A DNA stretch of 64,000 nucleotides from Candidatus Omnitrophota bacterium (GTDB lineage Bacteria; Omnitrophota; Gorgyraeia; Zapsychrales; Zapsychraceae), in contig JANQMA010000026.1 in the NCBI GenBank assembly GCA_028280285.1, positions 822-64,821 of the forward strand, given 5' to 3'. Under the pieces are notes generated by a model, which made no database searches, was not told the DNA's origin, and saw only the letters and a list, made by a program, of their open reading frames with translations. The position numbers and the translations under genes are program-made. Below are positions 1 through 25,659 of this stretch, piece after piece (the stretch's first letter is position 1; each line of letters begins with the position of its first letter).

Positions 1-3000
1 CATTCACAATTATCAGGTGTTTCTGACTGATAGCCATCTAAAGGTTATGCTGGAAAAGGACCTTTTTGCCGCACGCCAGGAAATTGGCGCAGATGTAGCG
101 CACATGGAGGCGGCAGGCGAACTGGTCAGCTCGGAAGAAGTAGCTGCTGTGATCCGTGAAGTGCTTATTCCTGAGATTGAGTACGAGATCAATCATGGTA
201 AAAATTTCGCGACACTCCGTCAGATTTTTAACTCTGTTATTTTGGCCTCTTGGTATAAAGACAATCTAAAGGAGTCTTTACTCGGGAAGGTGTATGTTGA
301 TCAAAATAAGCTTGAAGGAATCAATGACAATGATACGGCCACCAATGAAGCGATCTACAATCAGTATTTAGAGGCATTTAAAGCCGGTGTCTATGACTAT
401 ATTAAGGAAGGGTACGATCCGAGCGCCCAGCAAATGACAGCCAAAAAATACTTCTCAGGCGGAATTGCAGATTTAGTTAGTTTAAAGCGTAAAGATAATG
501 GAGTATTAGGCAAAGATCTTACGGGCAGTGATAGTGCGACTTTAGCTAATCAATTGCGTATTCGAATAGCGAATTTTGAAGTAAACCTTCTTGAGTGGGT
601 TAAAGAACTTACTTCTGGTATTGAGGAAAGGGCAAAACAAAAACATGAAGCAGCTGTCCGTTATCGGGATTTTATTGATACAAAAGAACGGGTTAACATA
701 GAAAAAGGTTTATCAAATTTACCTGAAAAATATGAAAGAGCTGCCAGAGCTTTAATGGAATTACCAAAAGCATATTTTTCACAGAGACAGATTAGAAGTT
801 TACAAACAAGAATTATAAAGTCACCTAGGCGTCAGTTAGAGAGTACAAGTGAAAGCATTGCACAGAGTTTAGAGCTCAAATTAACTAAGTCTATGTCTGC
901 TAATACTGAATATAATTATAACAACATAATACGCTTTGTGTTCAAAGATGTGGTTAGTGGAGCAAAAGCTTTGCATATTATTAGTACTGATATGAGTGGG
1001 AATTATCATGAACAACCTTGGATTAGGCCAAGTAAGGATATTAAATTAGTTGTTGATCTTTTTCGGAGATTTGCTGAGTTACAACCGGATCCCACTACGT
1101 TTAAAAAAGCAGATAATCTTTTGGCGAATTATTTTAACGATGGTAGCGCCACGGCTTGGGCTGCGATAGGTCTTGGTAATACAGAAATTACAGATCCGGA
1201 TTTCTATAGGGAGTTAATGGCAGGAAATCTTAGGCGTGAACAAATTGCCCAAAAGATTTTATATTTTTCAGAGATTGTAGATGAATATGAATCTGTTAAG
1301 CTTGATCGCACGACAGCCGTAACCGAAGATAAACTTATTGGATTTAATGGATTGAGGCCAGCAAGTGTGCTTGATGTGCTTCGTGAGCTAGTTGATATCG
1401 AAAAAATAATAAAAACCAGCGATGCCGCCTCTATTGCAGACATTCCCGATGATGTCATATCTCCTAAAAGGAAACAAGAGCACATAAATAAGCTTAAAAA
1501 AGCTGGTACGCTCGCCAGCAGTGTAGAGAAGCAAAAACTGAGAACTGACACGATTAAGGCTATGCTACAGGATTTTTATGAGTATACTCAAAGGATTTTA
1601 CGTGAGAACGACAAAAAAAGAAGCAGCAATAGTTTGACAACGCTAGGTTATTTTATGCCTGATATAAAGAGCATGGAGTTTCAGTATAATCAAAGTGAGT
1701 ATGAATTAGTAGAACAAGACAACAGTTTAGTTGTTTATTCTCTTGGTGACGAGCGCTCGATTTTACCAAATCAAGATATTACGAGTAATTTGCTTGTAGA
1801 GATTTCTAAGGTATTGAAGCAACGGGCAGACCGCATGACTCAAAAGACAGAAGAGGCTGTTAAAAAATCTTCAGACGAAGAGTGGGAAGAAATTTATAAC
1901 CTTGTTGGTGATGAAAGTGATGCATGGTTAGATTTAGATTCCGCTGAAGGCCAGATGAAAGATGAGGCCTCACTAGACACGCTGCTGATTGATTATAAAG
2001 GTCATGATCCTGAGTTGCGCGATGTGACCAATGTGATTAATGCGTTGCCTAAAAAATATCGTGAGGCAATAGAAGAAGCAGATCGTCCTTCATCTGTTGC
2101 TGATATAATTACGAAAGCTGAATCAGAGGGTTTGGTTGAATTTGCAATAATTACCAAGAGCGATCAGGTACGGCCAGCCATAAGGCGTTTATTTTATGAT
2201 GAAGAGCTGCTGCCAGTTACATCTGCGAGCTTGGCAGTGAATTATACTGGAAAAACTCAAATCACTAAGCGAGTTACTGAAGTGCTTAACGCCGAGGCAA
2301 AAGATGATTCAGATTTTGATCAACAATTAAGGGGAGGACTATTAAAGAGAGAAGTCATTATTGAAAGGGTTATGAATTCTAAACATGCGCCGGATGATTT
2401 GCGCGCAGGAGATAGATATGTTCTTATCGGCGCTGCGATCGATGAGTTGGTCGAACGGGGAAATATGAAAACCAGCGACGCCGCCGCGCTTGGGCAGGAA
2501 ACCGTGGACGAATTTGATGCGGCGGACTTGGATATCGAAAAAGAGGATGATTGGGATGATATCATAAAAGCTGTTCGTCAATTAAAGCCAGGGAAGACAG
2601 AAGAAGGTTTACATGAGGCTATTATGGCGTATATGAAGAGACACCAAAAAATGTTTAAGGTTGATCAGGGAGCATATGAGATGTATGTTCTTCCGCAAAT
2701 GAGTAGGATCTTTGCTGAATTTTATGAAATGGGGGGGATACCCCTGTACATGCTAAAAGGCCTTAAAGATCATCTTGATGAAATTTCAAAGGCACCGACA
2801 AGAGATGAACAGGTTTTTTTCCTAGCTACAGTAACTCTAAATATTTTGGGTCTACATGAATATGATGCGAAGAAGATTTTTTCTGATTCTTCTTTGCCGA
2901 TGCAGGACTCCGGTATTAGCAAAGAAGATAGAATTAATACAATTACCAAAAACTATGACGCACTGAAAGAAAAGGCCCAATTTTTAAGTGTAATTGAATC

Positions 3001-6000
3001 AAGACTTAAAGCTAAAAATAATCAAGGAGATGCGGATGCAGATAAGCTGCTACTTAGGCATCGTTTGTTGACCGATATAATACGGTCTAGTTTAGTTAGG
3101 TTCAGTGTATCTTTAGATCGTATGATTTCTGAGATGCGATTATCACTTGAAGTAGATGAAGAATCGGTTCAGGAAGTGGATCTGCATTATGTGGACTACA
3201 CTCTTCGGGCGATACATTTGACTTTAGACTTTTTAATAACAGATGTAGACAAAGCCGCGCTTGAGCAGACTGATGCGGCGATATTATTAAGTCCTGAGGA
3301 GGAAGAAAGAGCGCTATTATTAACAGCAGCTGAAGATCGAATTAATACGCTTTTGGATGAGCAGTACAAATCAGGAAGTGTAACAAAAGAAATTTATGAA
3401 AAATCAAGGAAAAGCGCCTTTAAAAATTTTAAAGAATGGACAGAAAGCGAAGAGCTGTACCGCTTAGCACCGGGGATTCGCATGGCCAATTTGCAGGCTG
3501 TCCGTGATGGACGTTTTAATGATATCGTGGAGGCTTATCGTCAAGAAATCGCCTTTGGAACAGCAGGTATTCGCGGGAAAGCGGCACTAACTCTGGATGA
3601 ACTTTTTAAAATGAAAGAGGATGGTCCAGCGGCAGCAATTCTTAAGGGAATTAACACAATTAATGATGTCGTTCTTCTACATAAAACAGCCGGTGTTATC
3701 AAATATGCACAGGAGACAGGGCGCACACGTATTGTGCTTGGGTATGATAGCCGCATCGGCGGATCAGAATTTATTGATATGATTGCGCGTTTATTCATTA
3801 AAGCGTCCAAGCCCGAACATGAATTTAAACTTTTTATTTTTGACGAATCGGCGCCTTTTCCAGAGCTGTCTTTTGGTATTACAACAAAAGAAGTTCAAGG
3901 GCATATCGGTATTTTTATATCGGCAAGCCATAACCCTGCGGATTATAACGGATACAAAATTACACTGGAAACAGGAGCCCAATTGAACCAAGAAAATAAA
4001 AATCTTGTATTGGATGCGGTAAATAGAACAACATTTGCAGATATTGTGTTAGCAGATTCACTTGCGGATGCTAAACCTGGACAAATTGTATGGTTAGGTG
4101 GGAAAGAAAGGCTAGAAGATAAGCAGTATTATGGATTTGATTTGATCGATATGCATACATTACATGTTGAACAGGTAAAAAAGTTGATTCTTGATAAAGA
4201 AGCGATCACGCGTGAAGGGCGTAATGTTAATATCGGATTTGCTGCATTTAATGGGGCCGGGCGCAAAGCAGTACCACGTTTGTTGGATGAAACAGATTTT
4301 GATAATGTAAAGGTTGTGTCAAAACTCCAAGAGTTAGACGGGCTTTTTCCTGCCTTTAAATATGGAGAACAACCCGATCCAGGTGACCCAATTGCAGGGG
4401 AAATTGCCGTCAATGAGTTCATTAAGGAGCATGGGCAAGAAGCGTTTGATGAACTAGATCTTCTGGTGGGAACTGATCCTGATTCTGATCGTATGGGCGC
4501 GGTACTGAAAGTCCCTGAAAGCCAACAAGCACAATTTGGAAAATATAGATTAATATCAGCCAATGATGCCTGGACACTCCTTACATGGTACAGACTTATG
4601 AAAAAGAAGGAGATGGGTTTATTAGAAAATCCCGAAAACCATCTTGTTGTAACAACACATGCAACGAGTGATGCGATTGCTGAAGTTGCTGAACAGGAAT
4701 TTGGTGTTGGTTCATATGGAAGAATGTTAGATATGAATAAAAAAGAAGATCGTGGAGATTATTTAAATGGTCAGCGCACATGGGTTGGCTTTACATATGT
4801 CTCAGAGGCTTTTGAGGAAATTTTAAAGATGGGGAAAGTTGCCGAAGGCGGTTATGAAGAATCTAATGGAATGAGTTTGCACGGACACACAAATGATAAA
4901 GATGGAACTTTGGCGGCCATTTTATTTGCGGAAATGGCGGCTTATGCGAAATCAGAAGGAACAACGCTATTTGAAATGCTCGATGAAATTTATTTAAAAA
5001 TAGGGCATTTTGGAACGGCTAACAAACCGTTACCAAGGGTTGGTTCGTTTGAAGGGGCAGCAGGCGTTTCAGAGAAAATTAATATATTAAAGAAAGCACA
5101 AGAGTGGGCGGCTGAAGCAAATAGTCGTGCCGGAACAGATAATCCTTTTATGATTGCCGGCCGTGAGGTTATCGGAGCCGTTGAGTTTAAATCGGGGCGC
5201 ATTGATCATAATCACTATGAAGGCGTACCTGATGAAGGAATTAGATTTTTCTTTAAAGATGAAAACATGAAAGAGGGGGATCATTTTATAAAGAGTAAAA
5301 ATTATGTAATGATTCGCCCTTCCGGTACATCTCAGACATTACGATTCTATACACAACTTCTTAAAAAAGTTGATCGTGAAAATATTGCTCAGCAAAAGCT
5401 GGAAAATTATATAGCGACAGAGCAATTAGCGCTTATGACGCAAAGGCAAATCTTGGGAGATGTTGGTTTGACTAAATATTTTGCAATGGTGGATGCACAA
5501 CTAGCGGAAGTAAGTCTTTCTAATGATAACGCAGCAATTGAAGAGGAAAAAGAAGATGCAGCAAGCTTGGCCGCTGAAGTTGCCTTGAAGCAGCTGGAAC
5601 GGGCCATTGGGGATGATTTTTCCTTTTTTATGAATTATACAGCAAAATTAGAGTATCAAGGTAATGTTAGAAATATTTATTATAACGATAATAGGCCTTT
5701 AGAATTAGAAATGTTAGAAAAAGTTATGCGTCATTATCAGAAATTGTTAATTGACCATGGGTTTTTCGATTTGGAGGTCAAGCGTCTGCGCATTCAAGGA
5801 TTACCGATTGACAATGAAGTCCTTAAGGTAACCCGTCAATCAGAATTTGAGTATGCTATAAATTTAGGCGATAGCAAGCCGGTTAGCATGAGTATTGATG
5901 ATATTCGTTCATTTATTAGACAAGCCCGGGCTAAGCTTCTTAAGAATGGAGATATAAGAAACGGTATTTTAACGCAACTGGCAAAACAATTAAGTAAAAA

Positions 6001-8059
6001 GGGTATTGCGCGTCTAGAGATTCAGCCATTCCTACCGTGGACTTCGGGATGGGTTTTTGAGTCTCATCCTGAGGGTAAGTTTGAGTTGTTGAGAAAGGGC
6101 AAGCCCGTTGAGGTGACGGAAGGGCTGTTGACTCGAATTGCAAACAAAGCTATAGAAGAACTAAACCGTAAAAAAGCTGAGAAGGATTTTAAAAACAAAG
6201 GATTTAAAAAATTACTCGAAGACGCCGCGGCATTTACAAAAGAAGATTTAGCAAGTATCGCCCGTATTTCAACAGAAATTATCTCAGAAGAAAAAATGAA
6301 AACAATTATAGCGAAACTAAAGGCAATTCGTGAATCATCAAGTACACCTTCAGAGCTAAAAGAATCACGTGAAAGTGCTGTGCAAGGAATGCTAAATGAC
6401 TTTCAAGAGTATGCTACGCAGGTTTTAGGCGAAATTAATACCCTAAGAGCGAAAGCAAATCAAGATCCTATTGAGGAATTTATTGGTAAATATGATACAT
6501 TCAATCATGATGGAAAAGATTATCATATTACTATGAACGAATCGCTCACAATTTTTGCTCAACATTGGAATGGTCCATTTCCTCTGGAAAGAGTTACTGG
6601 GGCTTTGTTAAGGGCAATATCAGTTAAACTTACTACTCAGAAAGACAATTTACAGGAGGATGTTAAGGCGTTAAATGCAGAAGCATTGGAAGCTGAGCAA
6701 AGTAAAATTGATGAGTTTCTTGATGATGCGGCATTAACAGTAGTTGAAGCAACGCCTGCCGACGCCGCGGCATTGAATATGGTAGAGAAATTGGCTAAAG
6801 GGCTTAACGGTCAAACAATAGGTCTGTTGACTCTGGATTATGATTCTGATGAGAGTAAAAGATCGGATACTAAAGGACTCGCTGTCTTTGAATTGAATAT
6901 GAAACAAGCAACTTCTATTAATGCATTTATGGAACTTCATGTTGGCGTTGAACGGATCAAAAAAGCCAAAGGTGAGAAGAAAGATACGATGCGTGTGTAT
7001 GTGAATTTGTCAGGACAGATTAAAGAGCAGACTGCTGATGGGATAGAGAGATTTGATGTGTTAGAAATTATTCAGGAAAGAGGTGAAGATCGAAAGATTG
7101 TGGAGGAGTTTGCTCATCAATTAATGGACAGACTTCCTTCCATTGTTGAGTTTGGGAATAGGGTTTTGCAGATTGATTTTGAAAAAAATATTGTTGATAC
7201 GGTAGGTGAGACAGAGCTTAAAGAGTACTTTGCAGAGCGTAAGGCTAAAGTAAAGGTTACACAATATGCCGGTGGACCTGTTATGAGTGTAATATTTGGT
7301 CCTGCCGCACTTGAGCAGGAAGGGCAAGACGGGTCCAATGATTATCTATTGTTTTCTGTATTAGCGAACTCAAAAGTTTTAACAAAAGATGATAAAAACG
7401 CACTTAATTTTACATATACCCGGGTTGATGACTACGTTGATTCAGTAAAGAGAACGCAAGATTTATATTGGGATGTTGTTGAAAAAATAGGTGATCGGTT
7501 AAAAGAAAAAGGGATTCTCAACGCGGAAATGACTTCACTTAAAATGAGGGCACCTGTCCTTGGAAAGTTTAGGGGAAAGACAATTATTTTTAAAGAAAAT
7601 CCGAATAGATTTAACGTTAACCAATATACGGCGCCGTCAACGAAATATGCTTTATTTAGATATGAAGGTGTGAAGGAAGTGATAATGAAGCCTGATGAGA
7701 TTACAGAATCTATGCTTCGTAAGGTAATTAAAGCGGCAAATAAAGCATTGGAAGATCACGCGGCACTTGACCCGCTTGGGGGTATTGATCTTAATCCTGA
7801 CCTTTTGGATCTGCAAATTAAGCGCGACGGCCGCGGTATTCCACTGCCACTTGATCAACAACCGCTTGAAAATATGCAAATTGACGGTTTTCTACCTATT
7901 ATTATTAATATTAATCCAGTTGCCAATTTGCCGCTTCTTTTGGGGCTTCTAGATGAGGATGGAGAGACCAATGAGGCTGAGGCGGATGCCTCTCAATCAG
8001 CGCAACTATATGGAAGAGAAGAACTTAGCTATTTAAGAGAAGGTGACAGCGAATTCTAA
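1..8059 (+). CDS. Giant exported-family protein, paralog A (5' end lies outside the window; >2680 aa) with embedded phosphohexomutase domain
   Basis: ORF is open to the window edge. Codons 2-16 (IHNYQ) continue the paralog alignment 'IYIHN..VFLTDSHLKVMLEKD' seen in 14001..17330, so GTG at 17 is internal. Shares the N-module (NFATLRQIFNSVILASWYKDNLKE...YFSGG) and C-module (GGIDLNPDLLDLQIKRDGRGIPLP...GFLPIIININPVANLPLLLGL) with the next two genes. Stop TAA at 8057-8059. Confidence 0.85.
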   Translation, partial: IHNYQVFLTDSHLKVMLEKDLFAARQEIGADVAHMEAAGELVSSEEVAAVIREVLIPEIEYEINHGKNFATLRQIFNSVILASWYKDNLKESLLGKVYVDQNKLEGINDNDTATNEAIYNQYLEAFKAGVYDYIKEGYDPSAQQMTAKKYFSGGIADLVSLKRKDNGVLGKDLTGSDSATLANQLRIRIANFEVNLLEWVKELTSGIEERAKQKHEAAVRYRDFIDTKERVNIEKGLSNLPEKYERAARALMELPKAYFSQRQIRSLQTRIIKSPRRQLESTSESIAQSLELKLTKSMSANTEYNYNNIIRFVFKDVVSGAKALHIISTDMSGNYHEQPWIRPSKDIKLVVDLFRRFAELQPDPTTFKKADNLLANYFNDGSATAWAAIGLGNTEITDPDFYRELMAGNLRREQIAQKILYFSEIVDEYESVKLDRTTAVTEDKLIGFNGLRPASVLDVLRELVDIEKIIKTSDAASIADIPDDVISPKRKQEHINKLKKAGTLASSVEKQKLRTDTIKAMLQDFYEYTQRILRENDKKRSSNSLTTLGYFMPDIKSMEFQYNQSEYELVEQDNSLVVYSLGDERSILPNQDITSNLLVEISKVLKQRADRMTQKTEEAVKKSSDEEWEEIYNLVGDESDAWLDLDSAEGQMKDEASLDTLLIDYKGHDPELRDVTNVINALPKKYREAIEEADRPSSVADIITKAESEGLVEFAIITKSDQVRPAIRRLFYDEELLPVTSASLAVNYTGKTQITKRVTEVLNAEAKDDSDFDQQLRGGLLKREVIIERVMNSKHAPDDLRAGDRYVLIGAAIDELVERGNMKTSDAAALGQETVDEFDAADLDIEKEDDWDDIIKAVRQLKPGKTEEGLHEAIMAYMKRHQKMFKVDQGAYEMYVLPQMSRIFAEFYEMGGIPLYMLKGLKDHLDEISKAPTRDEQVFFLATVTLNILGLHEYDAKKIFSDSSLPMQDSGISKEDRINTITKNYDALKEKAQFLSVIESRLKAKNNQGDADADKLLLRHRLLTDIIRSSLVRFSVSLDRMISEMRLSLEVDEESVQEVDLHYVDYTLRAIHLTLDFLITDVDKAALEQTDAAILLSPEEEERALLLTAAEDRINTLLDEQYKSGSVTKEIYEKSRKSAFKNFKEWTESEELYRLAPGIRMANLQAVRDGRFNDIVEAYRQEIAFGTAGIRGKAALTLDELFKMKEDGPAAAILKGINTINDVVLLHKTAGVIKYAQETGRTRIVLGYDSRIGGSEFIDMIARLFIKASKPEHEFKLFIFDESAPFPELSFGITTKEVQGHIGIFISASHNPADYNGYKITLETGAQLNQENKNLVLDAVNRTTFADIVLADSLADAKPGQIVWLGGKERLEDKQYYGFDLIDMHTLHVEQVKKLILDKEAITREGRNVNIGFAAFNGAGRKAVPRLLDETDFDNVKVVSKLQELDGLFPAFKYGEQPDPGDPIAGEIAVNEFIKEHGQEAFDELDLLVGTDPDSDRMGAVLKVPESQQAQFGKYRLISANDAWTLLTWYRLMKKKEMGLLENPENHLVVTTHATSDAIAEVAEQEFGVGSYGRMLDMNKKEDRGDYLNGQRTWVGFTYVSEAFEEILKMGKVAEGGYEESNGMSLHGHTNDKDGTLAAILFAEMAAYAKSEGTTLFEMLDEIYLKIGHFGTANKPLPRVGSFEGAAGVSEKINILKKAQEWAAEANSRAGTDNPFMIAGREVIGAVEFKSGRIDHNHYEGVPDEGIRFFFKDENMKEGDHFIKSKNYVMIRPSGTSQTLRFYTQLLKKVDRENIAQQKLENYIATEQLALMTQRQILGDVGLTKYFAMVDAQLAEVSLSNDNAAIEEEKEDAASLAAEVALKQLERAIGDDFSFFMNYTAKLEYQGNVRNIYYNDNRPLELEMLEKVMRHYQKLLIDHGFFDLEVKRLRIQGLPIDNEVLKVTRQSEFEYAINLGDSKPVSMSIDDIRSFIRQARAKLLKNGDIRNGILTQLAKQLSKKGIARLEIQPFLPWTSGWVFESHPEGKFELLRKGKPVEVTEGLLTRIANKAIEELNRKKAEKDFKNKGFKKLLEDAAAFTKEDLASIARISTEIISEEKMKTIIAKLKAIRESSSTPSELKESRESAVQGMLNDFQEYATQVLGEINTLRAKANQDPIEEFIGKYDTFNHDGKDYHITMNESLTIFAQHWNGPFPLERVTGALLRAISVKLTTQKDNLQEDVKALNAEALEAEQSKIDEFLDDAALTVVEATPADAAALNMVEKLAKGLNGQTIGLLTLDYDSDESKRSDTKGLAVFELNMKQATSINAFMELHVGVERIKKAKGEKKDTMRVYVNLSGQIKEQTADGIERFDVLEIIQERGEDRKIVEEFAHQLMDRLPSIVEFGNRVLQIDFEKNIVDTVGETELKEYFAERKAKVKVTQYAGGPVMSVIFGPAALEQEGQDGSNDYLLFSVLANSKVLTKDDKNALNFTYTRVDDYVDSVKRTQDLYWDVVEKIGDRLKEKGILNAEMTSLKMRAPVLGKFRGKTIIFKENPNRFNVNQYTAPSTKYALFRYEGVKEVIMKPDEITESMLRKVIKAANKALEDHAALDPLGGIDLNPDLLDLQIKRDGRGIPLPLDQQPLENMQIDGFLPIIININPVANLPLLLGLLDEDGETNEAEADASQSAQLYGREELSYLREGDSEF
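3389..5420 (+). other. Complete alpha-D-phosphohexomutase (PGM/PMM, PgcA/PGM2-like) domain embedded in the giant ORF
   Basis: All four family motifs are in frame. FGTAGIRG begins at 3551. Phosphoserine loop SASHNP is at 3920-3937. Metal loop GTDPDSDRMG is at 4469-4498. Sugar loop GGYEESNG is at 4847-4870. Phosphate loop IRPSGTSQTLRFY is at 5312-5350. Domain boundaries are approximate. Confidence 0.85.
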
Positions 8060-8094
8060 CAAGGCCACACACTATCCCCCAAACCGTTTCAATC

Positions 8095-8122
8095 TTGAAT
8101 TGGCTTAACAGCATGCTATACT
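8095..8122 (+). promoter_or_regulatory. Putative sigma70-type promoter of giant paralog B (TTGAAT-N16-TATACT)
   Basis: TTGAAT at 8095-8100, 16-nt spacer, TATACT at 8117-8122, about 70 nt upstream of ATG 8193. The identical hexamer pair and spacing recur upstream of paralog C. Confidence 0.4.
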
Positions 8123-8192
8123 TATAACTATAATATTAGAAATTAAGGCATTTAGGTGCTGTTTGTATACTTTTACCAGGGAAGGGGTAAAT

Positions 8193-11100
8193 ATGTCTAT
8201 TAGTTTTAAATCATCCAGTAAATCTCCATTGACTCAGATTACATCCCTATTTGTCGCGTTTATATTTTGTTTTACTTCCGTTATTGCTCCCGGCTCGGCC
8301 CGGGCACAATTTATCCCGACACCGGCTGTCATGCCGGCAGTCGGCAGTATGGTGCAGATTTCCAATGCCTTTGATCCGCTTATTATCAAGGGTCTTACCA
8401 TTCATCCGGAGAATCCTCTGGAGTTTTCATTTTTAGTCGATTTAGGCGATACCAATTATAGCGAAACAAAGATCAAAGATGAGTCGCAGCGGCTGATTAC
8501 CTATTTTATGGCCGGTTTAACGGTCCCTGAAAGCGAGCTGTGGGTCAACCTTTCCCCTTATGAGAATAACCGTATTATTCCCGACAGCCTTGGCCAGACA
8601 GCCATGGGGCGTGATCTTCTCGCGCAAGACTATCTGCTTAAGCAGTTAACCGCGTCTTTAATGTATCCGGAAGATGAACTGGGCGATAAATTCTGGACAC
8701 AGATTAAACAGCGTGTGGAAGCTTTATATGGTCCGGGCGTTGATATCCCGACCAATGTGTTTAACAAGGTCTGGATTATGCCGGAAAGTGCGGAAATCTA
8801 TATTCATAACACCAGTGTTTTTCTTTTGGGTAGCCGTCTTCAGGTTATGCTGGAAGAAGATTATGTGGCGGCGCGCAAGGCCATTGGCGCGGATGTTGCG
8901 CATATGGAGACTGCCGGAGAGTTATTGGGCCATCAAGAGGTAGCGGAGGTTGTCCGTGAAGTGATCCTGCCGGCTATTGAAGAAGAAGTCAACTTTGGCG
9001 AAAACTTTTCTACCCTGCGGCAAATCTTTAATTCGATTATCCTTGCCTCCTGGTACAAAGACAATCTGAAAGAAACGATTTTAGGCCAGATTTATGCCGA
9101 TCAAAACAAGCTTAAAGGGATTGATGAAAACGACAAGCAAACAAATCAGCAGATTTATCAAAAGTATTTAGAGGCCTTTGAAGAGGGTGTTTATAACTAT
9201 ATTAGAGAAGAGTACGATCCGGCTAAGCAGCAGATTATTCCACGCAAATACTTCTCCGGCGGATGGCTTCATGATCAGGCAGCGCTACTCACTCATGAAA
9301 ATACAGTAGTGGAAGGCCAGTACGGCCAACCCCTTGATGCAGCCGTGCTTCAGAATTTTGGCAAGGCTATGACTCCTGAAGTTGTGAGGAAAATGAAACG
9401 AGTTAGGGCTCAATTGGCTCAAGAAAGTGCGAAAACGCATACAGTTGAGTCAATTGCTTACCAACCGCTTTTGTCTAATATTCCAAAGACAATAATTAAT
9501 AATGTGGAGGCTAGCCAACTAACCGATTTATTACAAGAAGATCAAATTAATCTCATCGCCAGAAAAACGCTGCTTGAGCTTATTAATCAGAGGGGTGTTT
9601 TGGATTATGGGATTGATGTTAATGTGCAAGCGGGTGAAGCGATCGATTTTATTTTTAACACAGACATGGATGACCGGATTATGCGTGCCGTGCGCACAGA
9701 ATTGCAATCGGAAGAAGAGTTGAGCACGCAACGCATGCTTGATTTGTTAGATGCATTTAGTGTAGAAGTTACGATTGTTGAAGGTGGTGCTTCTCGTTCT
9801 GAGGAAATGAGTTTGCGTGATTATATTCAAGGTAATCTCCAACATGCCGTTTATTTGGCCCATGCTGTCGGTAATGCGGATGAAAGAGGTGATGAGTCGA
9901 CGCGTGTAAGAAAGCGAAGAGGAATAAGAGAACAATTAGAACGTAGCTTTCCCGGTGTTAGCTCGGTAACTCTTAGAACTATTGCGCGTGATTTGGTTAA
10001 ATTACAAAGGAACAGATTAAATGATGATCATATGTCATTAATCGTACAAGCTGTTTCTGATAAGGTCCAGGCTAAGGTTAGTTTTGATCAGGTATACACA
10101 ACAGATGAATTTTCTTTCCGTGTTAGAAAGCAAGGGCAACTGGAAATCGCCGCGGCACGGGGAAACATTTTTAGTGATGTATCGTGGGGTAGCTTAACAG
10201 TCAATCAGCTAGGCCTTATAGCCCAGGCGGTTGACAATGCTTCGATACAAGATCCCGTCGAACCCGGTACGATTCAACAGCAATCAATGGTGAAAGAATC
10301 CGCTGATTTTAACCGGATTACTTCATATGCGGGGCAATCTTTCCAAAGAGATAATTTGTCTCAATTGATGCGTGAAGCAAGCTTTGTATCAGAGAGCCGT
10401 GAAAATTTTGTTGAGTTAAGAGATCAATTCGAACGCATACGAACGGCGTCAGATCCGCAGGGTAGCATTGTTGGTATTAAGGTTATTGAAAATACTCAGC
10501 CTCTTCAATATGGAGGGGGTTTTGAGCTTGACGGCATAGTATATGTTGAACAAAGCTTATTAGATCATATCGAAAAGAATAATAACCCTTTTAATATGCG
10601 TGAACGTATGTTGCGCAATTTCTTTCGTAAAGGAACTGCCCTTGAGAGAAAAATTGCGGAATATGATGAATTGGTTCAAAAATACGGAGAATCCAGGTTA
10701 AACTTATTTCCGGAAGGCCGTGTCCTACAAAGCTATCGCGATACGCTTTATGGGCAATTACCGGCAGATAAAAATAATACAGAAAGGCTTAATATTATAC
10801 TTGAAAAACACGGATTCAATAATGTTAAAATTACTGAGCCTGATGAAAAAGCGATTGAATTAACTAATATATTAAAGGAACACATTGATATTGCTTTATA
10901 CACAATGGCGATCAATTCGGCGAATAAATTTATTGATTTAAATAAAAATATCCGTATGCATACGGATGATCCTTTATTGGATTCAAATGAGGAGTATGTA
11001 GCTAATTTTTTTGCTTTCGCCGCTTATCCAGCGACTGTTGCGCACTTTATTACTGTTGCCTTAAAAGGAGGCGCGCTGTCCTATTCGGATGATAATATTT

Positions 11101-13742
11101 TTTATGTGTCCAAAGATCAGCTAAAACCAGAGGCCTATCGTGAATATGATAGTCGTTATGATATTACGGAAGCCGTAGTGGAAAATACTATGCAAGGTCT
11201 GGCACGGTTAATGCCCAAAACGACTGAAAGGCAGGGCAAAAATGGAGAAAACATGTTGCTTCCTCTGGCTGAAAAGAATATAGGAGCTAAGCAAATCACT
11301 TTTAATTATATGATTGGGGAGGATCATTGGCTTGCCTTTGCGCGCTATACTGAAGACCATGTGAAAAAAGCAAAGCGAACAATTAATGATCTTGAGAAAG
11401 AAAAAGAGCAATTAAACAGTAAGATAAAAAATGCTGAGGTGCCAGAAGAAAAAGATCAAACGGAGTTTCGAGTAGAAATTAATAGGCGCCTAACAGAGAT
11501 TGATCAAAAAATAGAGCACAACCAGAATATTAAGGCGGGAGGTATTATACCCACCCGTGTAAAGTTGGATGAAGCGGATTTTATGGTTATGGAGGGGTAT
11601 CTGGATTTATTGAAATTATTGCTTGAGAAGGATAAAGAAAGCTTAACAGATCAGCAGGTTGAGGCCATTGAAGTACTCCTTGACCAAAGAGCTCTTTTCT
11701 TAGATGAATTGTCTGATGCGGCTGAGGAAGATAGGAAGTTAGATAACGATGACCCTGAAGATACGCCACATTTGTTTGAAGTATTTAAAAAATATGGTAT
11801 TTCAGAAGTTCCTAAGCTGGACACAGCCGGAAAGATTCATTTATCGGCAAAGGAATTTAAAAAACGTCATCCGGATCAGCCTATTGAAATGAGGGTTGTA
11901 ATTACCAAGCGCGGCAGTATTATGGAAGATAAAATTCGCGATGAGCTTAAAGTTCCACATACTATTAATCCAGGTTTGGACTATCCGGTTTCTTCAACCG
12001 CACTGAGAACTGCGCTTGTGAATATTCCACGTGATAGGTTAGACCGAGGTGAATTGCCTTTTGTATTTATCGATACCGTGGATGAATTATTAGAATCTCA
12101 GAGGAGAGAACATCTTTATTCATTGTTATTGACAAAAAGTGAACCAACCCTAGCTAATGCACTTGAAGTTGTATTTCCTAAAAATCAAGCAAGAAAAGAA
12201 CAGCGGCATACTCAATTAAGAGCAGATCTTCAACAGGCGCTTCAAGAGGGATATTATACCAACAATGTAAATGTTGATGGGCATGTTGAGCCCAAAAACA
12301 ACCGTTCTGTATTGGACATTCAAGTTAATGACGATAAATTTCGTGTTGTCTATAATGTTGTCAATCGTGCAAAGACAAAGGGAAACATAGTTCGATTTGC
12401 TGTTAGCGATCAGAATAATAAAGAAATTAGTCAGACGGAGTGGTCAGAAAAATCTGTTTTAAGTAGTGCCGTAGAAGAATATTTGAAAAGTTATACTGGC
12501 GCTGTTGTTACGACATACTTGCCACTTGAGGAGTTAAGTAAACGTGAGCTTGTCCATCAAAGAGGTAAGGATCTCAATTTTCTTTCCAGCAATGATGGTC
12601 AAATTATGCAATTCATGCAAGAGTTTGCGCAGGAATTCACACATGATACTACTACTGAATCCCGTGAACAAGAATTATCAGAAGACTTTGAGCTTGTTGT
12701 CTTTGACCGCCCACGATTTTTACGTCAAGATGGGCGGATTGAGATTCAATTTACTCATCAAATATTTAATGATCCAGTTAATAAGGCATGGACAGCAGAT
12801 GGATATTTTCAATATATTGATGAAAAAATTGTTTCTGAGCTAAATTGGTTTTTAAGTGATAGGCGACTAAAAGCCGAAGCGCTAAACAATACGTTAACGA
12901 TCAATAAGAATAGAGACGGCATGCCTTACGTTACAATGGAAATTGAAATATCTAAGGTCTCGGCTACTTTGGGGCAAAAAGACAGTGAAAACGAGTCCGA
13001 CGCCCCGACTATGACCAGTGGACAAAGATTATTTGTTGTTAACGAATCGCAGAATAAGGTAAACCAATTTAGTGTAGAGGATATGGATCCTGATTTTGGA
13101 AGGATAAAAAGCACGGCAACGGTACGGTTTCTTCCGTCGAACGGTAACGGTGTTGTCAAGGGTATGGTGAGGTATATTCCTAATCAACGTGATAATTCAA
13201 ATCAAAATGAATTAAATAAATTAAAATTTAAATTAAAAGAAAAATATGTGCAGAATAATGAACAAGAAAAGCGCGATATCGAAGAGGAAATTAAAACACT
13301 TGAGACTAAGCTTAAAGAAAGCAGGGAAAATGTTTTAACAAAACTTGAAAAGGAGTTAAATTCTTTAAACGATGACCTCAATCCCGGAGAAACACAGGAG
13401 TATGATGTTAAACCTTCTCGACTCGTTACCAATGATGGCTTTGAACTAACCATTACGTTGCAGGATAACGCAGCGGTTACAGCCGATCCGGTGGGTGGTA
13501 TTGATCTTAATCCCGAGATGCTTGATCTTCAGATCAAACGCGACGCAAGCGGCATGCCGCTTCCGGTGAGTCAGCAGCCGATTATCAATATGGATATCGA
13601 AGGGTTTGTGCCGGTTATTATTAATATCACGCCTGTTACCAATGTTCCGCTTATGCTGGGTTTAATTAATGAAGGAACGATTGAGGTAGAAGAAGAGCCG
13701 CTTGAGGCCGTTCAGGCCGTCCGGTTTGATGAGTTGAGTTAA
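8193..13742 (+). CDS. Giant exported-family protein, paralog B (1849 aa)
   Basis: ATG 8193 is preceded by GGAAGGGG. Signal peptide ends ...APGSARA|QF. Has the conserved N-module and C-module (GGIDLNPEMLDLQIKRDASGMPLP...GFVPVIINITPVTNVPLMLGL) around a unique ~1400-aa core with coiled-coil stretches. Confidence 0.85.
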   Translation: MSISFKSSSKSPLTQITSLFVAFIFCFTSVIAPGSARAQFIPTPAVMPAVGSMVQISNAFDPLIIKGLTIHPENPLEFSFLVDLGDTNYSETKIKDESQRLITYFMAGLTVPESELWVNLSPYENNRIIPDSLGQTAMGRDLLAQDYLLKQLTASLMYPEDELGDKFWTQIKQRVEALYGPGVDIPTNVFNKVWIMPESAEIYIHNTSVFLLGSRLQVMLEEDYVAARKAIGADVAHMETAGELLGHQEVAEVVREVILPAIEEEVNFGENFSTLRQIFNSIILASWYKDNLKETILGQIYADQNKLKGIDENDKQTNQQIYQKYLEAFEEGVYNYIREEYDPAKQQIIPRKYFSGGWLHDQAALLTHENTVVEGQYGQPLDAAVLQNFGKAMTPEVVRKMKRVRAQLAQESAKTHTVESIAYQPLLSNIPKTIINNVEASQLTDLLQEDQINLIARKTLLELINQRGVLDYGIDVNVQAGEAIDFIFNTDMDDRIMRAVRTELQSEEELSTQRMLDLLDAFSVEVTIVEGGASRSEEMSLRDYIQGNLQHAVYLAHAVGNADERGDESTRVRKRRGIREQLERSFPGVSSVTLRTIARDLVKLQRNRLNDDHMSLIVQAVSDKVQAKVSFDQVYTTDEFSFRVRKQGQLEIAAARGNIFSDVSWGSLTVNQLGLIAQAVDNASIQDPVEPGTIQQQSMVKESADFNRITSYAGQSFQRDNLSQLMREASFVSESRENFVELRDQFERIRTASDPQGSIVGIKVIENTQPLQYGGGFELDGIVYVEQSLLDHIEKNNNPFNMRERMLRNFFRKGTALERKIAEYDELVQKYGESRLNLFPEGRVLQSYRDTLYGQLPADKNNTERLNIILEKHGFNNVKITEPDEKAIELTNILKEHIDIALYTMAINSANKFIDLNKNIRMHTDDPLLDSNEEYVANFFAFAAYPATVAHFITVALKGGALSYSDDNIFYVSKDQLKPEAYREYDSRYDITEAVVENTMQGLARLMPKTTERQGKNGENMLLPLAEKNIGAKQITFNYMIGEDHWLAFARYTEDHVKKAKRTINDLEKEKEQLNSKIKNAEVPEEKDQTEFRVEINRRLTEIDQKIEHNQNIKAGGIIPTRVKLDEADFMVMEGYLDLLKLLLEKDKESLTDQQVEAIEVLLDQRALFLDELSDAAEEDRKLDNDDPEDTPHLFEVFKKYGISEVPKLDTAGKIHLSAKEFKKRHPDQPIEMRVVITKRGSIMEDKIRDELKVPHTINPGLDYPVSSTALRTALVNIPRDRLDRGELPFVFIDTVDELLESQRREHLYSLLLTKSEPTLANALEVVFPKNQARKEQRHTQLRADLQQALQEGYYTNNVNVDGHVEPKNNRSVLDIQVNDDKFRVVYNVVNRAKTKGNIVRFAVSDQNNKEISQTEWSEKSVLSSAVEEYLKSYTGAVVTTYLPLEELSKRELVHQRGKDLNFLSSNDGQIMQFMQEFAQEFTHDTTTESREQELSEDFELVVFDRPRFLRQDGRIEIQFTHQIFNDPVNKAWTADGYFQYIDEKIVSELNWFLSDRRLKAEALNNTLTINKNRDGMPYVTMEIEISKVSATLGQKDSENESDAPTMTSGQRLFVVNESQNKVNQFSVEDMDPDFGRIKSTATVRFLPSNGNGVVKGMVRYIPNQRDNSNQNELNKLKFKLKEKYVQNNEQEKRDIEEEIKTLETKLKESRENVLTKLEKELNSLNDDLNPGETQEYDVKPSRLVTNDGFELTITLQDNAAVTADPVGGIDLNPEMLDLQIKRDASGMPLPVSQQPIINMDIEGFVPVIINITPVTNVPLMLGLINEGTIEVEEEPLEAVQAVRFDELS

Positions 13743-13748
13743 ATTTAT

Positions 13749-13818
13749 TAGATCCTAGATCCTTGATTCTTGATGCTAGATATCCAGAATCTAGAATCCA
13801 GGATCAAGCATCTAGAAT
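13749..13818 (+). terminator. Heptad-periodic hairpin after paralog B
   Basis: Left arm is tagatcc tagatcc ttgattc ttgatgc tagatat. Right arm is ccagaat ctagaat ccaggat caagcat ctagaat. It starts 7 nt after the stop codon. Confidence 0.5.
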
Positions 13819-13911
13819 GTGAATTTTTTGTAACACGTCTTCGCATTTCCCAAAATCGTATAAGTCATTTATCATCAGTAGTTTAGATTTATTCTATCCT
13901 GCGCCCTCCTA

Positions 13912-13939
13912 TTGAATTCCCTCTAATTTACGTTATACT
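13912..13939 (+). promoter_or_regulatory. Putative sigma70-type promoter of giant paralog C (TTGAAT-N16-TATACT)
   Basis: TTGAAT at 13912-13917, 16-nt spacer, TATACT at 13934-13939, about 61 nt upstream of TTG 14001. Same hexamers and spacing as at 8095-8122. Confidence 0.4.
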
Positions 13940-14000
13940 TTTACTACAGTATTTCTGTGACACAGTATTGTTCAATTCTACCAAATAGAAGGAGTTACCA

Positions 14001-17000
14001 TTGAAGTCGCTTAAATCTTTCATCCTATCTAAAGTCATTTCATCGCTTACTATATTAATATTTTTATTAGGTAATATTATTATTCCAACCAATACATACG
14101 CAGAGCAAATTGCCACGCCTGTCTTTATGCCGCCTGTAGGTAGTATGATAGGCGCAAGTGAAATGTATACGCCAACGATTATCAACGGATTAATCATCAA
14201 TCCCGATGATCCACTGCAATTTTCATTCCTTGTCGATGCCGGTGATGCGAATCTTCAAGGCGAGGCGTTTAAAGAAGAGTCGCAACGCTTAGTGAATTAT
14301 TTTATGGCGGGGTTAGCTGTTCCGGAAGATGAGATATGGGTTAACTTGTCGCCCTATGAGAAAAATCGTATTGTTCCTGATGCCTTAGGGCAAACAGCGA
14401 TGGGGCGTGACTTGCTTGCCCAAGATTATTTGCTTAAACAATTTACAGCTTCTCTGATGTATCCGGAAGATGAAATGGGTAAAGCCTTCTGGAAGCGAAT
14501 TAAAGAGAAGGTAAGCACCAAACATGGCATTGATGATATCCCGACTAATATGTTTAGTAAAGTTTGGATCGTCCCAGAAAGTGCAAAGATTTATATTCAC
14601 AATATGACAGTATTTTTAACGGATAGTCATTTAAAGGTTATGCTTGAAAAAGACTATTTAGCGACGCGTGAGGCGGTAGGTGATGATGTATCGCATATGG
14701 AAACAGAGCAGGAGCTTTTATCTTCAGAAAATGTTGCCTCTATCATACGAGACATCATTATTCCTGAAATTGAGCATGAGGTAAATCATGGCAAAAACTT
14801 TGCACCTCTTCGCCAAATCTTTAACTCGGTTATTCTTGCTTCCTGGTACAAGGCGAACTTAAAAGAGTCTTTGCTCGGACAAATCTATATTGACCAAAAC
14901 AAAATCGAAGGCATTAATGACAATGCGCCGGCAACGAATCAAGCGATTTACGACCAGTATCTAGAGGCCTTTAAAGCAGGCGTTTATAATTATGTGAAAG
15001 AAGAGTATGACCCTGCAGCCCAGCAAATGGTGGCGCAAAAATATTTTTCCGGCGGGATCGCAAACGATTTTGCAGCAATGGTTGATAATTCCAAATTACA
15101 AACAGTTGGAAAAATAATGGACGGGTTGGATCCGGCCAACATATCTGATTTGCAGAATAGCAATAGTGGGAGTATTCAAAGAGTAGATGTTGAAGTAAAG
15201 CCTGAAGAAATAAATCTTACTACAGTGGATGCTGCCATTTTAGAAGAAATTTCTTACATAAAAGCACTACTGGAACTTTCCTTTGAAGAAGAAGGTAATA
15301 ATGGTGATGAGGAATTTATTGAGGAAATCATGAGCAGTACATCGAGAATAATTGATTACTTCAAAGGTGCTGAAGAAAAGGATTTTAAATCTGACTATGA
15401 AGAAACTGTCCAACACTTAGTTTGGTGGCTTGGGTTCAAATTGCGTGAGGCTAGCTCTCCTGAGGATGGGTTAAATAAGACAATTCAAGTTAATTTCTTA
15501 CATAAAGGCAATGAATATGAGTACGTAGAAAAAAATGATATTAATAGGTCGATGGTAAGGGTTAAAAGTGACAGTTGGAAGAAGGAAGTTAGTCCAATAA
15601 ATACTCCAAGTCTTGCTGAGAACATCAGTTTACTTGAAGTCATGTTGGCTAGCAGTAGGCGAAACCTTGATACACATGTAAGGCGTCCAGTCAAAAACGA
15701 TGTCATTGAGCGTGTCAGGAAATGGCCTTTATTTGTTTTTGAGAATAACGCCGAAAGAAGATGGGTTCTTGATGCGCTTACAAGGAGACGTAATAAAGAT
15801 ATTAATTTAGGTAGCCTCCAGCTTGACGGCTTTGATGCTATTTTAGACAGAATTATTTCACGCCAACTAAAGGGTCAAAAGCGTAATGTAACCGTTGACG
15901 AAAAGCAAATACTTTTAAATCCTATTAATAACAGAAAAACTCTTTACGGAGGGGCGGATATAAGCAGCATACCTATTTTGGTATTACTTAGTATTGTTGA
16001 AGAGATTTACGAGCTGAAGATGTCTAATGAGGTTATTGAGACTACCAGGAAAAAGATGGAGTCAGTTAAGGATAATACTTGGAATATAGTTCGAAAATTT
16101 ATTGATGAGCAAATGAGCGAATATGAGGATCATGAATTGGTTTGGTCGATATATACGAAACCTGATTCTGATTTTAATACAGAAACAGTGTTGGTTATTG
16201 TTCCAAAGAAAGAAAATATAGATCGAGAAAAATTTAATCGGCAGATTGGTATTTTAAGTGAAGCGATTATTGAAAATGTAAATCTTCCCGAGGGGATAAA
16301 TATATTTAAACAAGGGGATAAAAACGCTTCAGATAAAGATTTATTAATCTTCAGAGAAAAAGAAGATGTTAAATTTACTGATGCTGAATCAGGAGAAATA
16401 TTGGAGTTTTATGAAGGAGTAAAGTTGCGTATTAAGCATGCTCCCGAATTTTTCCAACTTGACGGGAAAGGTAATCAATCAGTATTATCACAAAATGACC
16501 GCGAAAAACGGGCTGTGCGCAATATTACACGTGATTTTTATTTGGATTTACGTGTGGCAGATGAAACAAAAGACGATTTAAAACGGATCGATGTCCATTA
16601 TTATTATGGGCTTTCCTCTGGTCGTCGAGGGGTTGTGCCTATTTATGTAAAACAAGATGAGGATATTAACAATATTGCTGATGCGTTGTTGTTTGGTGTG
16701 CAGAGCCAGGTTAATGAAACTAATTTTTATAGACTTATATTTAATGATGTGCGCAGTACTTTAGTTAGACTTTTTGATGGAGAAAATCAAAAAAGACTTA
16801 ACCAGTTTGATAAAATTATTGCCGAAGCGGTAAAAAAAGGAAAATTTGCAAGCGAAGCAAAAGAAAAAATCTTTAAATGGGGCAGAGAAAATCAGCAGTA
16901 TACAGATAAAGAAGGATTAGAAGAGTTTCTACGTGCGCAATACGCGACTTTTAATATTGATTCAGAAATTATACTTAAGCATCTTCTTGACTCAGACTAC

Positions 17001-17330
17001 TTTTCCCAAATAAAAGATATAGTCCGCGGGTTTGACTTGAGCGCAGATAATGCTCATCTGACACCCGGTGGTATTGACCTTAATACCAAGATGCTTGATC
17101 TTAAGCTTGAGTATGATGGCAGCAATATACTGCCTACCGTGGATCCTGCGGTCTTAAAAGACATCAACATTAAAGGGCTTACCCCAATTATTACGAATGT
17201 GGTGCCGATCAGCAATTTGCCGCTTATGCTCGGGTTTGGTGATGGGCCGGGTTCGGATGACTCCGGGCCCTATACGATGGGGTCTGTTGGCGATCTTTCC
17301 TATCTTAAGTCGCAGGAGTTATATAAGTAA
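14001..17330 (+). CDS. Giant exported-family protein, paralog C (1109 aa)
   Basis: TTG start lies 6 nt after GAAGGAG. Signal peptide ends ...PTNTYA|EQ. The N-module is about 3/4 identical to paralog A by hand count over ~150 aa. C-module is GGIDLNTKMLDLKLEYDGSNILP...GLTPIITNVVPISNLPLMLGF. The core is unique. Confidence 0.85.
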   Translation: MKSLKSFILSKVISSLTILIFLLGNIIIPTNTYAEQIATPVFMPPVGSMIGASEMYTPTIINGLIINPDDPLQFSFLVDAGDANLQGEAFKEESQRLVNYFMAGLAVPEDEIWVNLSPYEKNRIVPDALGQTAMGRDLLAQDYLLKQFTASLMYPEDEMGKAFWKRIKEKVSTKHGIDDIPTNMFSKVWIVPESAKIYIHNMTVFLTDSHLKVMLEKDYLATREAVGDDVSHMETEQELLSSENVASIIRDIIIPEIEHEVNHGKNFAPLRQIFNSVILASWYKANLKESLLGQIYIDQNKIEGINDNAPATNQAIYDQYLEAFKAGVYNYVKEEYDPAAQQMVAQKYFSGGIANDFAAMVDNSKLQTVGKIMDGLDPANISDLQNSNSGSIQRVDVEVKPEEINLTTVDAAILEEISYIKALLELSFEEEGNNGDEEFIEEIMSSTSRIIDYFKGAEEKDFKSDYEETVQHLVWWLGFKLREASSPEDGLNKTIQVNFLHKGNEYEYVEKNDINRSMVRVKSDSWKKEVSPINTPSLAENISLLEVMLASSRRNLDTHVRRPVKNDVIERVRKWPLFVFENNAERRWVLDALTRRRNKDINLGSLQLDGFDAILDRIISRQLKGQKRNVTVDEKQILLNPINNRKTLYGGADISSIPILVLLSIVEEIYELKMSNEVIETTRKKMESVKDNTWNIVRKFIDEQMSEYEDHELVWSIYTKPDSDFNTETVLVIVPKKENIDREKFNRQIGILSEAIIENVNLPEGINIFKQGDKNASDKDLLIFREKEDVKFTDAESGEILEFYEGVKLRIKHAPEFFQLDGKGNQSVLSQNDREKRAVRNITRDFYLDLRVADETKDDLKRIDVHYYYGLSSGRRGVVPIYVKQDEDINNIADALLFGVQSQVNETNFYRLIFNDVRSTLVRLFDGENQKRLNQFDKIIAEAVKKGKFASEAKEKIFKWGRENQQYTDKEGLEEFLRAQYATFNIDSEIILKHLLDSDYFSQIKDIVRGFDLSADNAHLTPGGIDLNTKMLDLKLEYDGSNILPTVDPAVLKDINIKGLTPIITNVVPISNLPLMLGFGDGPGSDDSGPYTMGSVGDLSYLKSQELYK

Positions 17331-18513: not shown

Positions 18514-18524
18514 ATTCGAACAAG

Positions 18525-21853: not shown

Positions 21854-21920
21854 GTGGTCTGTTGTCTGTGGTCAGTGGTCATAAACTAAAACTGATCACA
21901 GAGCACCGAACACAGAACAC
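21854..21920 (+). terminator. Heptad-periodic hairpin
   Basis: Left arm gtggtct gttgtct gtggtca gtggtca, 10-nt loop, right arm ctgatca cagagca ccgaaca cagaaca. It starts 1 nt after the stop. Confidence 0.55.
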
Positions 21921-25646: not shown

Positions 25647-25659
25647 CGACAATTGTTTT

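Follow-up and report, generated by a model that had tools for sequence, protein, structure and literature searches.

A peptide motif of five residues marks the boundaries between modules in a family of long, modular Omnitrophota proteins, and its spelling is a property of the genome that encodes them. We analysed 64,000 nucleotides of DNA from a Candidatus Omnitrophota bacterium (GenBank assembly GCA_028280285.1, contig JANQMA010000026.1, positions 822 to 64,821 of the forward strand), referred to here as the window, with positions counted from its first letter. Positions 2-17330 are filled by three long genes on the forward strand, whose products we call giants A, B and C. Each has a conserved N-terminal module (N-module), a variable core and a conserved C-terminal module (C-module), and the motif sits in unstructured segments at the module boundaries: past the N-module, between cargo domains and ahead of the C-module. 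We tentatively suggest, at a probability that we would place a little short of even, that it is recognised by a factor that each genome encodes and that co-evolves with it, most likely an endopeptidase.

Three giant proteins and the family to which they belong

The N-module is about 350 amino acids (aa) long, is recognised by the succession WVNLSPYE ... GRDLLAQDY ... KYFSGG, and shows 55-68% pairwise identity among A, B and C. The C-module, found in all three, comprises 58 aa with the consensus GGIDLNPxxLDLQIKRDGxGxPLP...GFxPVIINIxPVxNLPLLLG, is rich in Pro and Asn and predicted to form strands, and is followed by an acidic tail. The genes and their conserved parts are the following; model confidence is given as pLDDT from an AlphaFold2 (AF2) prediction.

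2-8059, forward strand: giant A, open reading frame (ORF) open at the 5' edge of the window
2-463, forward strand: C-terminal part of the A N-module, ending in KYFSGG; 68% identical to C and 60% to B
3554-4990, forward strand: A cargo, phosphoglucomutase/phosphomannomutase (PGM/PMM) domains I-III, by Pfam and NCBIfam matches
7778-7951, forward strand: A C-module, GGIDLNP...NLPLLLGLL, 58 aa, followed by the acidic tail
8163-13742, forward strand: giant B, 1859 aa from TTG 8163
8163-9263, forward strand: signal-peptide-like N-terminus and N-module of B
13494-13667, forward strand: B C-module
14001-17330, forward strand: giant C, 1109 aa, identical to database protein P0001
14001-15056, forward strand: signal-peptide-like N-terminus and N-module of C; pLDDT around 90 at residues 50-290
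17067-17240, forward strand: C C-module; pLDDT 80-90 in parts

The GTG at base 17 given for A in the ORF listing is not the true start, as the frame is open from base 2; the window holds residues 204-2888 of the 2888-aa protein P0121, and this full-length A has a complete N-module and a signal-peptide-like start. The start of B is ambiguous, being TTG 8163 in the ORF listing and ATG 8193, 10 codons later, in the database protein P0005. The first residues of B, C and full-length A resemble Sec signal peptides, with a basic start, a hydrophobic stretch and a small-x-small pattern before Q or E; these and all further calls of signal peptides and export come from our own reading and a simple heuristic, not from a dedicated predictor. 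The three cores are unrelated to one another, no internal repeats were found among them, and the PGM/PMM enzyme in the middle of A is the sole domain of A, B and C recognised by Pfam or NCBIfam.

We then searched for relatives. A search with C gave more than 2,600 proteins, and every source name that identified an organism was Omnitrophota or Omnitrophica. An exhaustive phmmer search with the N-module found 7,875 representatives of 50%-identity clusters at E <= 1e-3, of which 6,096 had E <= 1e-30. Among the best 150 of these 7,875 matches the N-module is single and N-terminal, its match starts within about the first 75 residues, and the shortest protein has 420 aa and the longest 5312. Of the 120 best family matches, 115 carry the C-module, and among 129 complete members the heuristic found a hydrophobic window of 15 aa in 120 and a small-x-small pattern, ahead of Q, E or A, in 112. 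The family architecture thus consists of a signal-peptide-like start, the N-module of about 350 aa, a variable cargo and the 58-aa C-module. Cargos include PGM, UDP-glucose pyrophosphorylase (UGPase), glucose-6-phosphate isomerase (PGI), aldolase, fructose bisphosphatase (FBPase) and starch synthase, as well as methyltransferases, HATPase and receiver domains, DnaJ and radical SAM. That housekeeping enzymes of a cytoplasmic type should so often lie behind a signal-peptide-like N-terminus across the family is a topological puzzle.

Both modules are absent from Pfam, NCBIfam and PDB, and their signature strings did not occur in the literature searched for them; the family is previously undescribed and specific to Omnitrophota. 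Cargo is hardly shared: comparison with 118 other members gave a single weak match, of B 808-1070 with P0086, and a homolog search with the C-terminal cargo of A (window 5555-7756) gave none. Many of the metagenome-assembled genomes (MAGs) that carry the family (loci L005, L007, L009, L010 and others) are titled 'uncultured Planctomycetales bacterium', which may reflect a labelling issue or a wider distribution in the PVC group.

A five-residue motif recurs in the cores

An earlier note on this DNA had proposed that the tripeptide DAA, or a D-x-A-A variant of it, marks module junctions in all three giants. Every peptide that it quoted is present. For A these are eight DAA peptides (KTSDAAS, KTSDAAA, FDAADL, QTDAAIL, EDAASL, LEDAAAF, LDDAAL and PADAAAL) together with DKAAL, DNAAI and DHAAL; for B, PLDAAVLQ at 25 aa past the N-module and LQDNAAV-TADPV-GGIDLNP ahead of the C-module; and for C, TTVDAAILEE and SADNAHL-TP-GGIDLN. 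Alignment of the copies showed that the unit is a motif of five residues, D-x-A-[A/M/L/V/I/S]-[L/I/V/M/F], and not the tripeptide. The copies in the window, all on the forward strand, are as follows.

530-544: A, DSATL (in SDSATL), 23 aa past the N-module, missed by the earlier note
1421-1435: A, DAASI (KTSDAAS)
1961-1975: A, DEASL
2477-2491: A, DAAAL (KTSDAAA), with a weaker DAADL after it at 2516-2530
3248-3286: A, doublet DKAAL ... DAAIL, directly upstream of the PGM enzyme
5525-5569: A, doublet DNAAI ... DAASL, downstream of the PGM enzyme
6221-6259: A, doublet DAAAF ... DLASI
6722-6775: A, doublet DDAAL ... DAAAL
7754-7768: A, DHAAL, 3 aa ahead of the C-module
9273-9287: B, DQAAL, 3 aa past KYFSGG
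9336-9350: B, DAAVL (PLDAAVLQ)
10233-10247: B, DNASI
13464-13478: B, DNAAV, 5 aa ahead of the C-module
15066-15080: C, DFAAM, 3 aa past KYFSGG
15228-15242: C, DAAIL, after a conserved beta-strand that follows the N-module; a predicted helix begins here
17046-17060: C, DNAHL, 2 aa ahead of the C-module, pLDDT below 50

As the earlier note had stated, the motif brackets the variable core in every paralog, since A, B and C all have copies 3-25 aa past KYFSGG and 2-5 aa ahead of GGIDLNP. In A, doublets flank the PGM enzyme on each side and separate the remaining core segments. All three copies in C fall in segments of the AF2 model with pLDDT below 50. Regular expressions for this D-type spelling have a sizeable background, and single copies, especially DEASL, DLASI, DNASI and DAADL, are less certain than the class as a whole.

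We asked how far composition could account for these copies. DAA occurs 8 times in A against 1.46 expected (nominal P 1.4e-4) and is the top-ranked tripeptide of A, so that the excess claimed earlier is present in nominal terms; however, 25% of shuffled A sequences hold some tripeptide that is equally extreme, and DAA is not significantly enriched in B (2 against 0.47) or C (1 against 0.23). The tripeptide excess on the window alone is thus only suggestive, and because the excess in A fails correction for this look-elsewhere effect, we turned to the refined motif and to tests across the family. In the three cores D-x-A-[AMLVIS]-[LIVMF] occurs 18 times against 2.64 expected, a count reached by 0 of 1000 shuffles, in agreement with the proposed enrichment over shuffled sequence. 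In the 41 other ORFs of the window (12.7 thousand aa) the same pattern showed no significant excess (8 against 6.45). Three versions of the motif with permuted order occur once each in the cores, against 18 for the true order, which excludes an effect of local composition.

The same class of motif emerged de novo from other members. The 40 aa ahead of the C-module in 109 of them were enriched in SSP (30 against 4.2, P 1e-17), D.AM (22 against 4.0, P 8e-11) and DAA (11 against 2.1), and also in DSA, DNA and D.AL. A further 83 members reproduced the enrichment. In order controls on 196 family cores, D.AM was found 245 times against 14-65 for its permuted forms, and SSPφ (φ, a hydrophobic residue) 160 times against 6-29. 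Family proteins carry the motif at 4-10 times the density seen in ORFs next to them in the same genomes. Chance, by which linkers rich in Ala and Asp would yield DAA by accident, could draw on the failure of the excess in A under post-hoc correction; its probability is nevertheless close to nil, since the permuted-order controls, the independent family tests and the tests of position and genome concordance described below refute it. The recurring signal in the giants is a real short linear motif of five residues.

The codons used at 20 copies in the window vary freely (GAT/GAC for Asp; GCA/GCC/GCG/GCT for Ala), and no conserved nucleotides flank them. Because the codons are free, selection acts on the motif at the level of the peptide. 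This bears on an idea in the earlier note, that the motif is a seam tolerant of recombination where cores are swapped. In a DNA-level version of this idea, the motif would be what a conserved nucleotide site for the exchange of cargo cassettes looks like once translated. The extreme diversity of cargo between conserved ends would fit such a seam, as would the motifs that demarcate constant from variable regions in polymorphic toxins (VENN in CdiA). The freedom of synonymous codons at all 20 copies and the unconserved flanks speak against it, as do the copies that separate cargo domains at a distance from the conserved ends and the definition of the spellings at the amino-acid level, and we consider a DNA-level seam very improbable.

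The motif lies at module boundaries across the family

As the cargo of the window is hardly shared, we used the Pfam domains of other members to ask where the motif stands relative to homology blocks. In 13 proteins, one strict copy lay inside and 38 outside the Pfam-matched stretches, which cover 40% of the variable sequence (P 6.5e-8); the motif thus avoids folded domains. Across the family the first strict copy stands at a median of 23 aa past KYFSGG, and the last copy is usually 4-25 aa ahead of GGIDLNP, with a few at 27-39 aa. Residues around the motif are rich in E, G, D and S and otherwise unconserved. The following proteins illustrate this placement (residue numbers); in those with several enzymes, the motif stands between the enzymes.

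P0045: SSPV 428, PGM 452-977, SSPV 1007, PGI to 1510, SSPV 1538, C-module 1542
P0032: nine copies, none within PGI 840-1330
P0014: SSPM 1050, 4 aa ahead of a receiver domain
P0015 and P0118: DAAML and DNAIL between UGPase and PGM
P0173, a minimal member: N-module, DKAM, methyltransferase, DKAM-NAP-GGID

The densest use of the motif was seen in a member cut by the contig start (L010 108-9131, forward strand), which holds 16 regular D-x-A-M-L copies and one SSPL in 3008 aa. In MAG246, an ORF of 921 aa (L022 288-3050, forward strand) has five (E)DQAML copies and a degenerate tail resembling the C-module and lacks an N-module; the motif may thus be used outside the canonical architecture.

The spelling of the motif is a property of the genome

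Two main spellings are found ahead of the C-module, [A/S]-D-x-A-M-[L/T/V]-[S/A/G/T] (D-type) and [S/A/V/T]-S-S-P-[V/I/L/M] (S-type). When members were classed by the copy next to the C-module, the cores of S-type members held SSPφ 50 times against 0.9 expected with no excess of the D-type pattern (39 against 35), whereas those of D-type members held D.A[AMLVI] 105 times against 47 expected. A further 83 members replicated the result, with SSPφ at 51 against 3.6 and the D-type pattern at 306 against 189.

We then compared paralogs within genomes. One genome was taken for each species, which gave 85 family proteins at 78 loci. Within a genome, paralogs agreed in spelling in 39 of 40 pairs, against a mean of 24.7 and a maximum of 38 in permutations (P < 2e-4), and the spelling is common to paralogs whose N-modules are only about 50-60% identical. 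The window genome and its closest relatives, P0002-P0006, use D-x-A-A-φ; other genomes use D-x-A-M-L or S-S-P-[V/I/L], and N-x-[A/S]-M-L, D-S-S-M-L and D-x-A-[V/I]-[L/M] are found in yet others. The spelling is therefore a dialect of the genome. Taken together, the family-wide enrichment, the placement at boundaries and the concordance of dialects bear out the view, put forward in the earlier note, of a conserved motif that marks junctions and behaves as a recognition site.

The dialects bear on two further explanations. One is purely structural: the motif would form a boundary such as a helix N-cap or a hinge, which no partner reads. Position 1 is D, N or S, which are classical N-cap residues in established helix-capping statistics, the predicted helix 409-430 of C starts exactly at D410, and helix-like sequence follows several of the copies in A. 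A generic preference of this kind should not, however, switch from D-x-A-M-L to S-S-P-V between genomes with a concordance of 39/40, nor should other proteins from these genomes show it 4-10 times less often, and between the copies next to the C-module and GGIDLNP there are 2-5 residues that are not helical. We consider this explanation improbable. The second is a site of post-translational modification, for instance through O-glycosylation or phosphorylation at Ser of the S-S-P dialect. The hydroxyl residues of S-S-P-φ would suit it, and the window encodes, at 36318-39756, glycosyltransferases of the GT-C type (PMT_2, YfhO-like); yet the D-x-A-A/M-φ dialects, which include all the window copies, need no Ser, Thr or Tyr, and other genomes show no link between the GT-C genes and the family. 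Modification is accordingly a quite doubtful explanation, to which we assign little probability.

A probable recognition site for a trans-acting factor

A switch of spelling throughout a genome is hard to explain by intrinsic structure, which argues for one co-evolving reader per genome that acts in trans. The presence of a site at each boundary, including beside the C-module and straight past the N-module, resembles the organisation of polyproteins and multi-effector toxins, and for this reason we favour a processing site. The motif would be recognised by a single genome-encoded protein, most probably an endopeptidase that would cleave the exported protein at this site. The cargo modules would thereby be released from one another as well as from the N- and C-modules, in a maturation like that of a polyprotein. 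If the dialects are aligned as S-S-P|V and D-x-A|M, the residue ahead of the scissile bond (P1) would be Pro or Ala and the one past it (P1') hydrophobic.

Several observations weigh against a processing site. Close doublets, and the copies that flank the short strand after the N-module, would yield tiny fragments if all were cut. About 40% of members have no copy of the strict pattern ahead of the C-module, although many have degenerate forms there. No column of the N- or C-module strongly tracks the dialect, the maximum mutual information (MI) being 0.42 bit, which may be phylogenetic. Lastly, the export suggested by our heuristic would be odd for cargo of a cytoplasmic type (PGM, PGI, response regulators).

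We looked for the reader in several places. Pfam and NCBIfam searches of A, B and C gave no protease domain, and the N-module, in models of moderate overall confidence, matched no protease-like or other known fold. A peptidase domain or fold within the proteins, as in a self-processing polyprotein, was thus not found, and the self-cleavage suggested in the earlier note is not borne out. When 673 neighbouring ORFs from the 78 loci were clustered, no conserved neighbour and no conserved protease emerged. Given the weak MI, neither the N- nor the C-module is likely to be the reader. The window does encode an M48-family peptidase (44371-45180) and a GH5 cellulase (49113-50312); in other genomes neither shows a link to the giants.

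Alternatively, the motif could be a docking site that is not cut. A partner would bind it for multivalent tethering or ordered assembly of the cargo; this might be the family's own N- or C-module, in cis or in trans, a chaperone, or a factor that serves secretion or assembly. Dialect concordance, restriction to the family and a disordered context are shared by docking and processing, while doublets and multiple copies suit multivalency, and every family member has both conserved modules along with the motif. In C, a conserved short beta-strand at aa 392-401 (window 15174-15203) lies between the first two copies; it has a pLDDT of 83 when the C-module is in the model and below 50 in a model of the N-module only, which hints at contacts between the N- and C-terminal sides near the motif copies. 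This strand may pair with the C-module and so close the cargo into a loop. Docking is disfavoured by the lack of a module column that strongly tracks the dialect and by the lack of an identified partner, and strict placement at every domain boundary, as close as 2-5 residues to the C-module, is commoner for sites of processing than for docking. We regard docking as unlikely, while allowing it an appreciable probability.

Internal starts of translation at the Met of D-x-A-M were also considered; the S-S-P dialect argues against them, and no sequence resembling a ribosome-binding site is implied. As for what kind of enzyme might cut at the motif, D-x-A-A-φ may resemble the site at which CtpA processes the D1 protein; an A-x-A site of the kind used by signal peptidase, or an endopeptidase specific for post-proline or post-alanine bonds, would be further candidates.

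A still broader reading of the processing site would be a punctuation code across the phylum, in which thousands of exported modular precursors, many of them with ordinary metabolic and regulatory enzymes of the cell as cargo, are cut by a single co-evolving protease at a genome-specific motif of 4-5 residues. We think this rather unlikely. Were it true, it would amount to a bacterial polyprotein system of undescribed scale and organisation, and the same code might show where the giant (>10,000 aa) proteins of Omnitrophota are cleaved, for which a map is missing.

Comparison with known systems

Junction or processing motifs of modular precursors are of a known kind, and the giants recall several systems that have them but belong to none of these. 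What is new here is the family itself, its housekeeping-type cargo behind a signal-peptide-like start, and a junction motif with genome dialects. MARTX toxins have RTX-type repeats and a cysteine protease domain of their own (Peptidase_C80) that cuts after Leu. They resemble the giants in having conserved N- and C-terminal regions around a variable mosaic of cargo and short sites in unstructured linkers between domains. In contrast, A, B and C gave no match to RTX repeats or Peptidase_C80 in Pfam or NCBIfam, and the giants carry largely housekeeping-type enzymes and have motif dialects specific to the genome.

In polymorphic toxins, VENN in CdiA and PxxxxDPxGL in Rhs mark the border before the C-terminal toxin, and an immunity gene follows. 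Like these families, the giants have a short peptide at the border between constant and variable regions and occur as multiple paralogs. The CdiA and Rhs motifs occur once per protein, however, whereas that of the giants is found at every junction, with up to 16 copies per protein, and the giants end in the conserved C-module where those proteins have a variable toxin, and show no toxin/immunity organisation. No matches to FHA or YD repeat families were found in A, B and C, and VENN and DPxGL are absent from them. The genes downstream of the giants encode another family member or enzymes of sugar metabolism and are not of the immunity type.

Viral polyproteins, such as those with picornavirus 3C sites, share with the giants the repetition of one sequence at each unit boundary, co-evolving with the protease; they encode that protease themselves, whereas none was detected in or near the giant genes. 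Substrates of the type IX secretion system (T9SS), with a C-terminal domain (CTD) and the enzyme PorU, and sortase substrates with LPXTG resemble the giants in combining an N-terminal signal peptide and a conserved C-terminal module with a short site upstream of it. No Pfam or NCBIfam model of the T9SS CTD or Por secretion tail matched the C-terminal regions. Unlike sortase substrates, the giants lack LPXTG, a transmembrane (TM) segment and a basic tail, their own tail being acidic, and neither system has internal copies of its site at junctions between cargos, as the giants do.

A bacterial precedent for processing, established by experiment, comes from the paralogous P97/P102 adhesins of Mycoplasma hyopneumoniae, which are cut at the endoproteolytic motif S/T-X-F|X-D/E, as shown by mass spectrometry (PMC3322551). 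That motif was defined before the protease was known and was used to predict fragments (PMC3322551). The likeness lies in a motif of five residues within disordered regions of a paralogous, surface-directed family. The two systems differ in sequence, phylum and architecture, no genome dialects are reported in that work for the adhesins, and cleavage of the giants is a prediction from sequence patterns.

Omnitrophota are widespread, uncultivated and ultra-small bacteria. Oversized proteins with ordinary enzymes of a cytoplasmic type in this phylum have puzzled recent studies. Two preprints describe long or giant Omnitrophota proteins that contain PGM, PGI, aldolase, starch synthase, methyltransferase and receiver domains (bioRxiv 10.1101/2023.11.21.568195; 10.64898/2026.06.07.730766); there they are said to have signal-peptide or TM features, and cleavage into products is suspected, with the cleavage points stated to be unknown (10.1101/2023.11.21.568195; 10.64898/2026.06.07.730766). 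Term searches of the two preprints found no description of an N-module, a C-module or a junction motif. Proteins of the present family, of 0.4-5.3 thousand aa and with a single N-terminal N-module, share the phylum and the unusual cargo with those giants. In the main paper on the phylum, term searches gave no mention of fusions, paralogs, protein families, hypothetical proteins or phosphoglucomutase.

The motif predicts module boundaries, and possibly cut points, in about 7,900 protein clusters, genome by genome. The dialects offer a route to the reader, which should be a protein whose specificity pocket covaries with the dialect. Whatever the mechanism, a large family outside Pfam, NCBIfam and PDB is now defined, along with a rule for splitting its members into domains before structure prediction.

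Genomic surroundings

No conserved genomic context of the family was found at the 78 loci, and no evidence ties the neighbouring genes in the window to the motif. The window is almost entirely coded on the forward strand, with a cumulative GC skew that rises steadily; its main block on the reverse strand is the trio at 35396-39756 listed below. Features next to or beyond the giants are the following.

17446-26703: sugar/polysaccharide biosynthesis cluster directly downstream of the giants, with GFO/IDH/MocA oxidoreductases, two DegT-type aminotransferases, GT2, DUF354, UDP-GlcNAc 2-epimerase and GT1
24792-25379, reverse strand: ORF of 195 aa, antisense inside a DegT-type aminotransferase gene, probably spurious
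35396-39756, reverse strand: trio of a TPR protein, a YfhO-like membrane protein and a PMT_2 (GT-C) glycosyltransferase
58035-59564, reverse strand: SurA-like peptidyl-prolyl isomerase (PPIase), the sole other large gene on this strand

Further genes of the window encode a lipoyl-synthase-like radical SAM protein, an ABC-F protein, RmuC and HisG.

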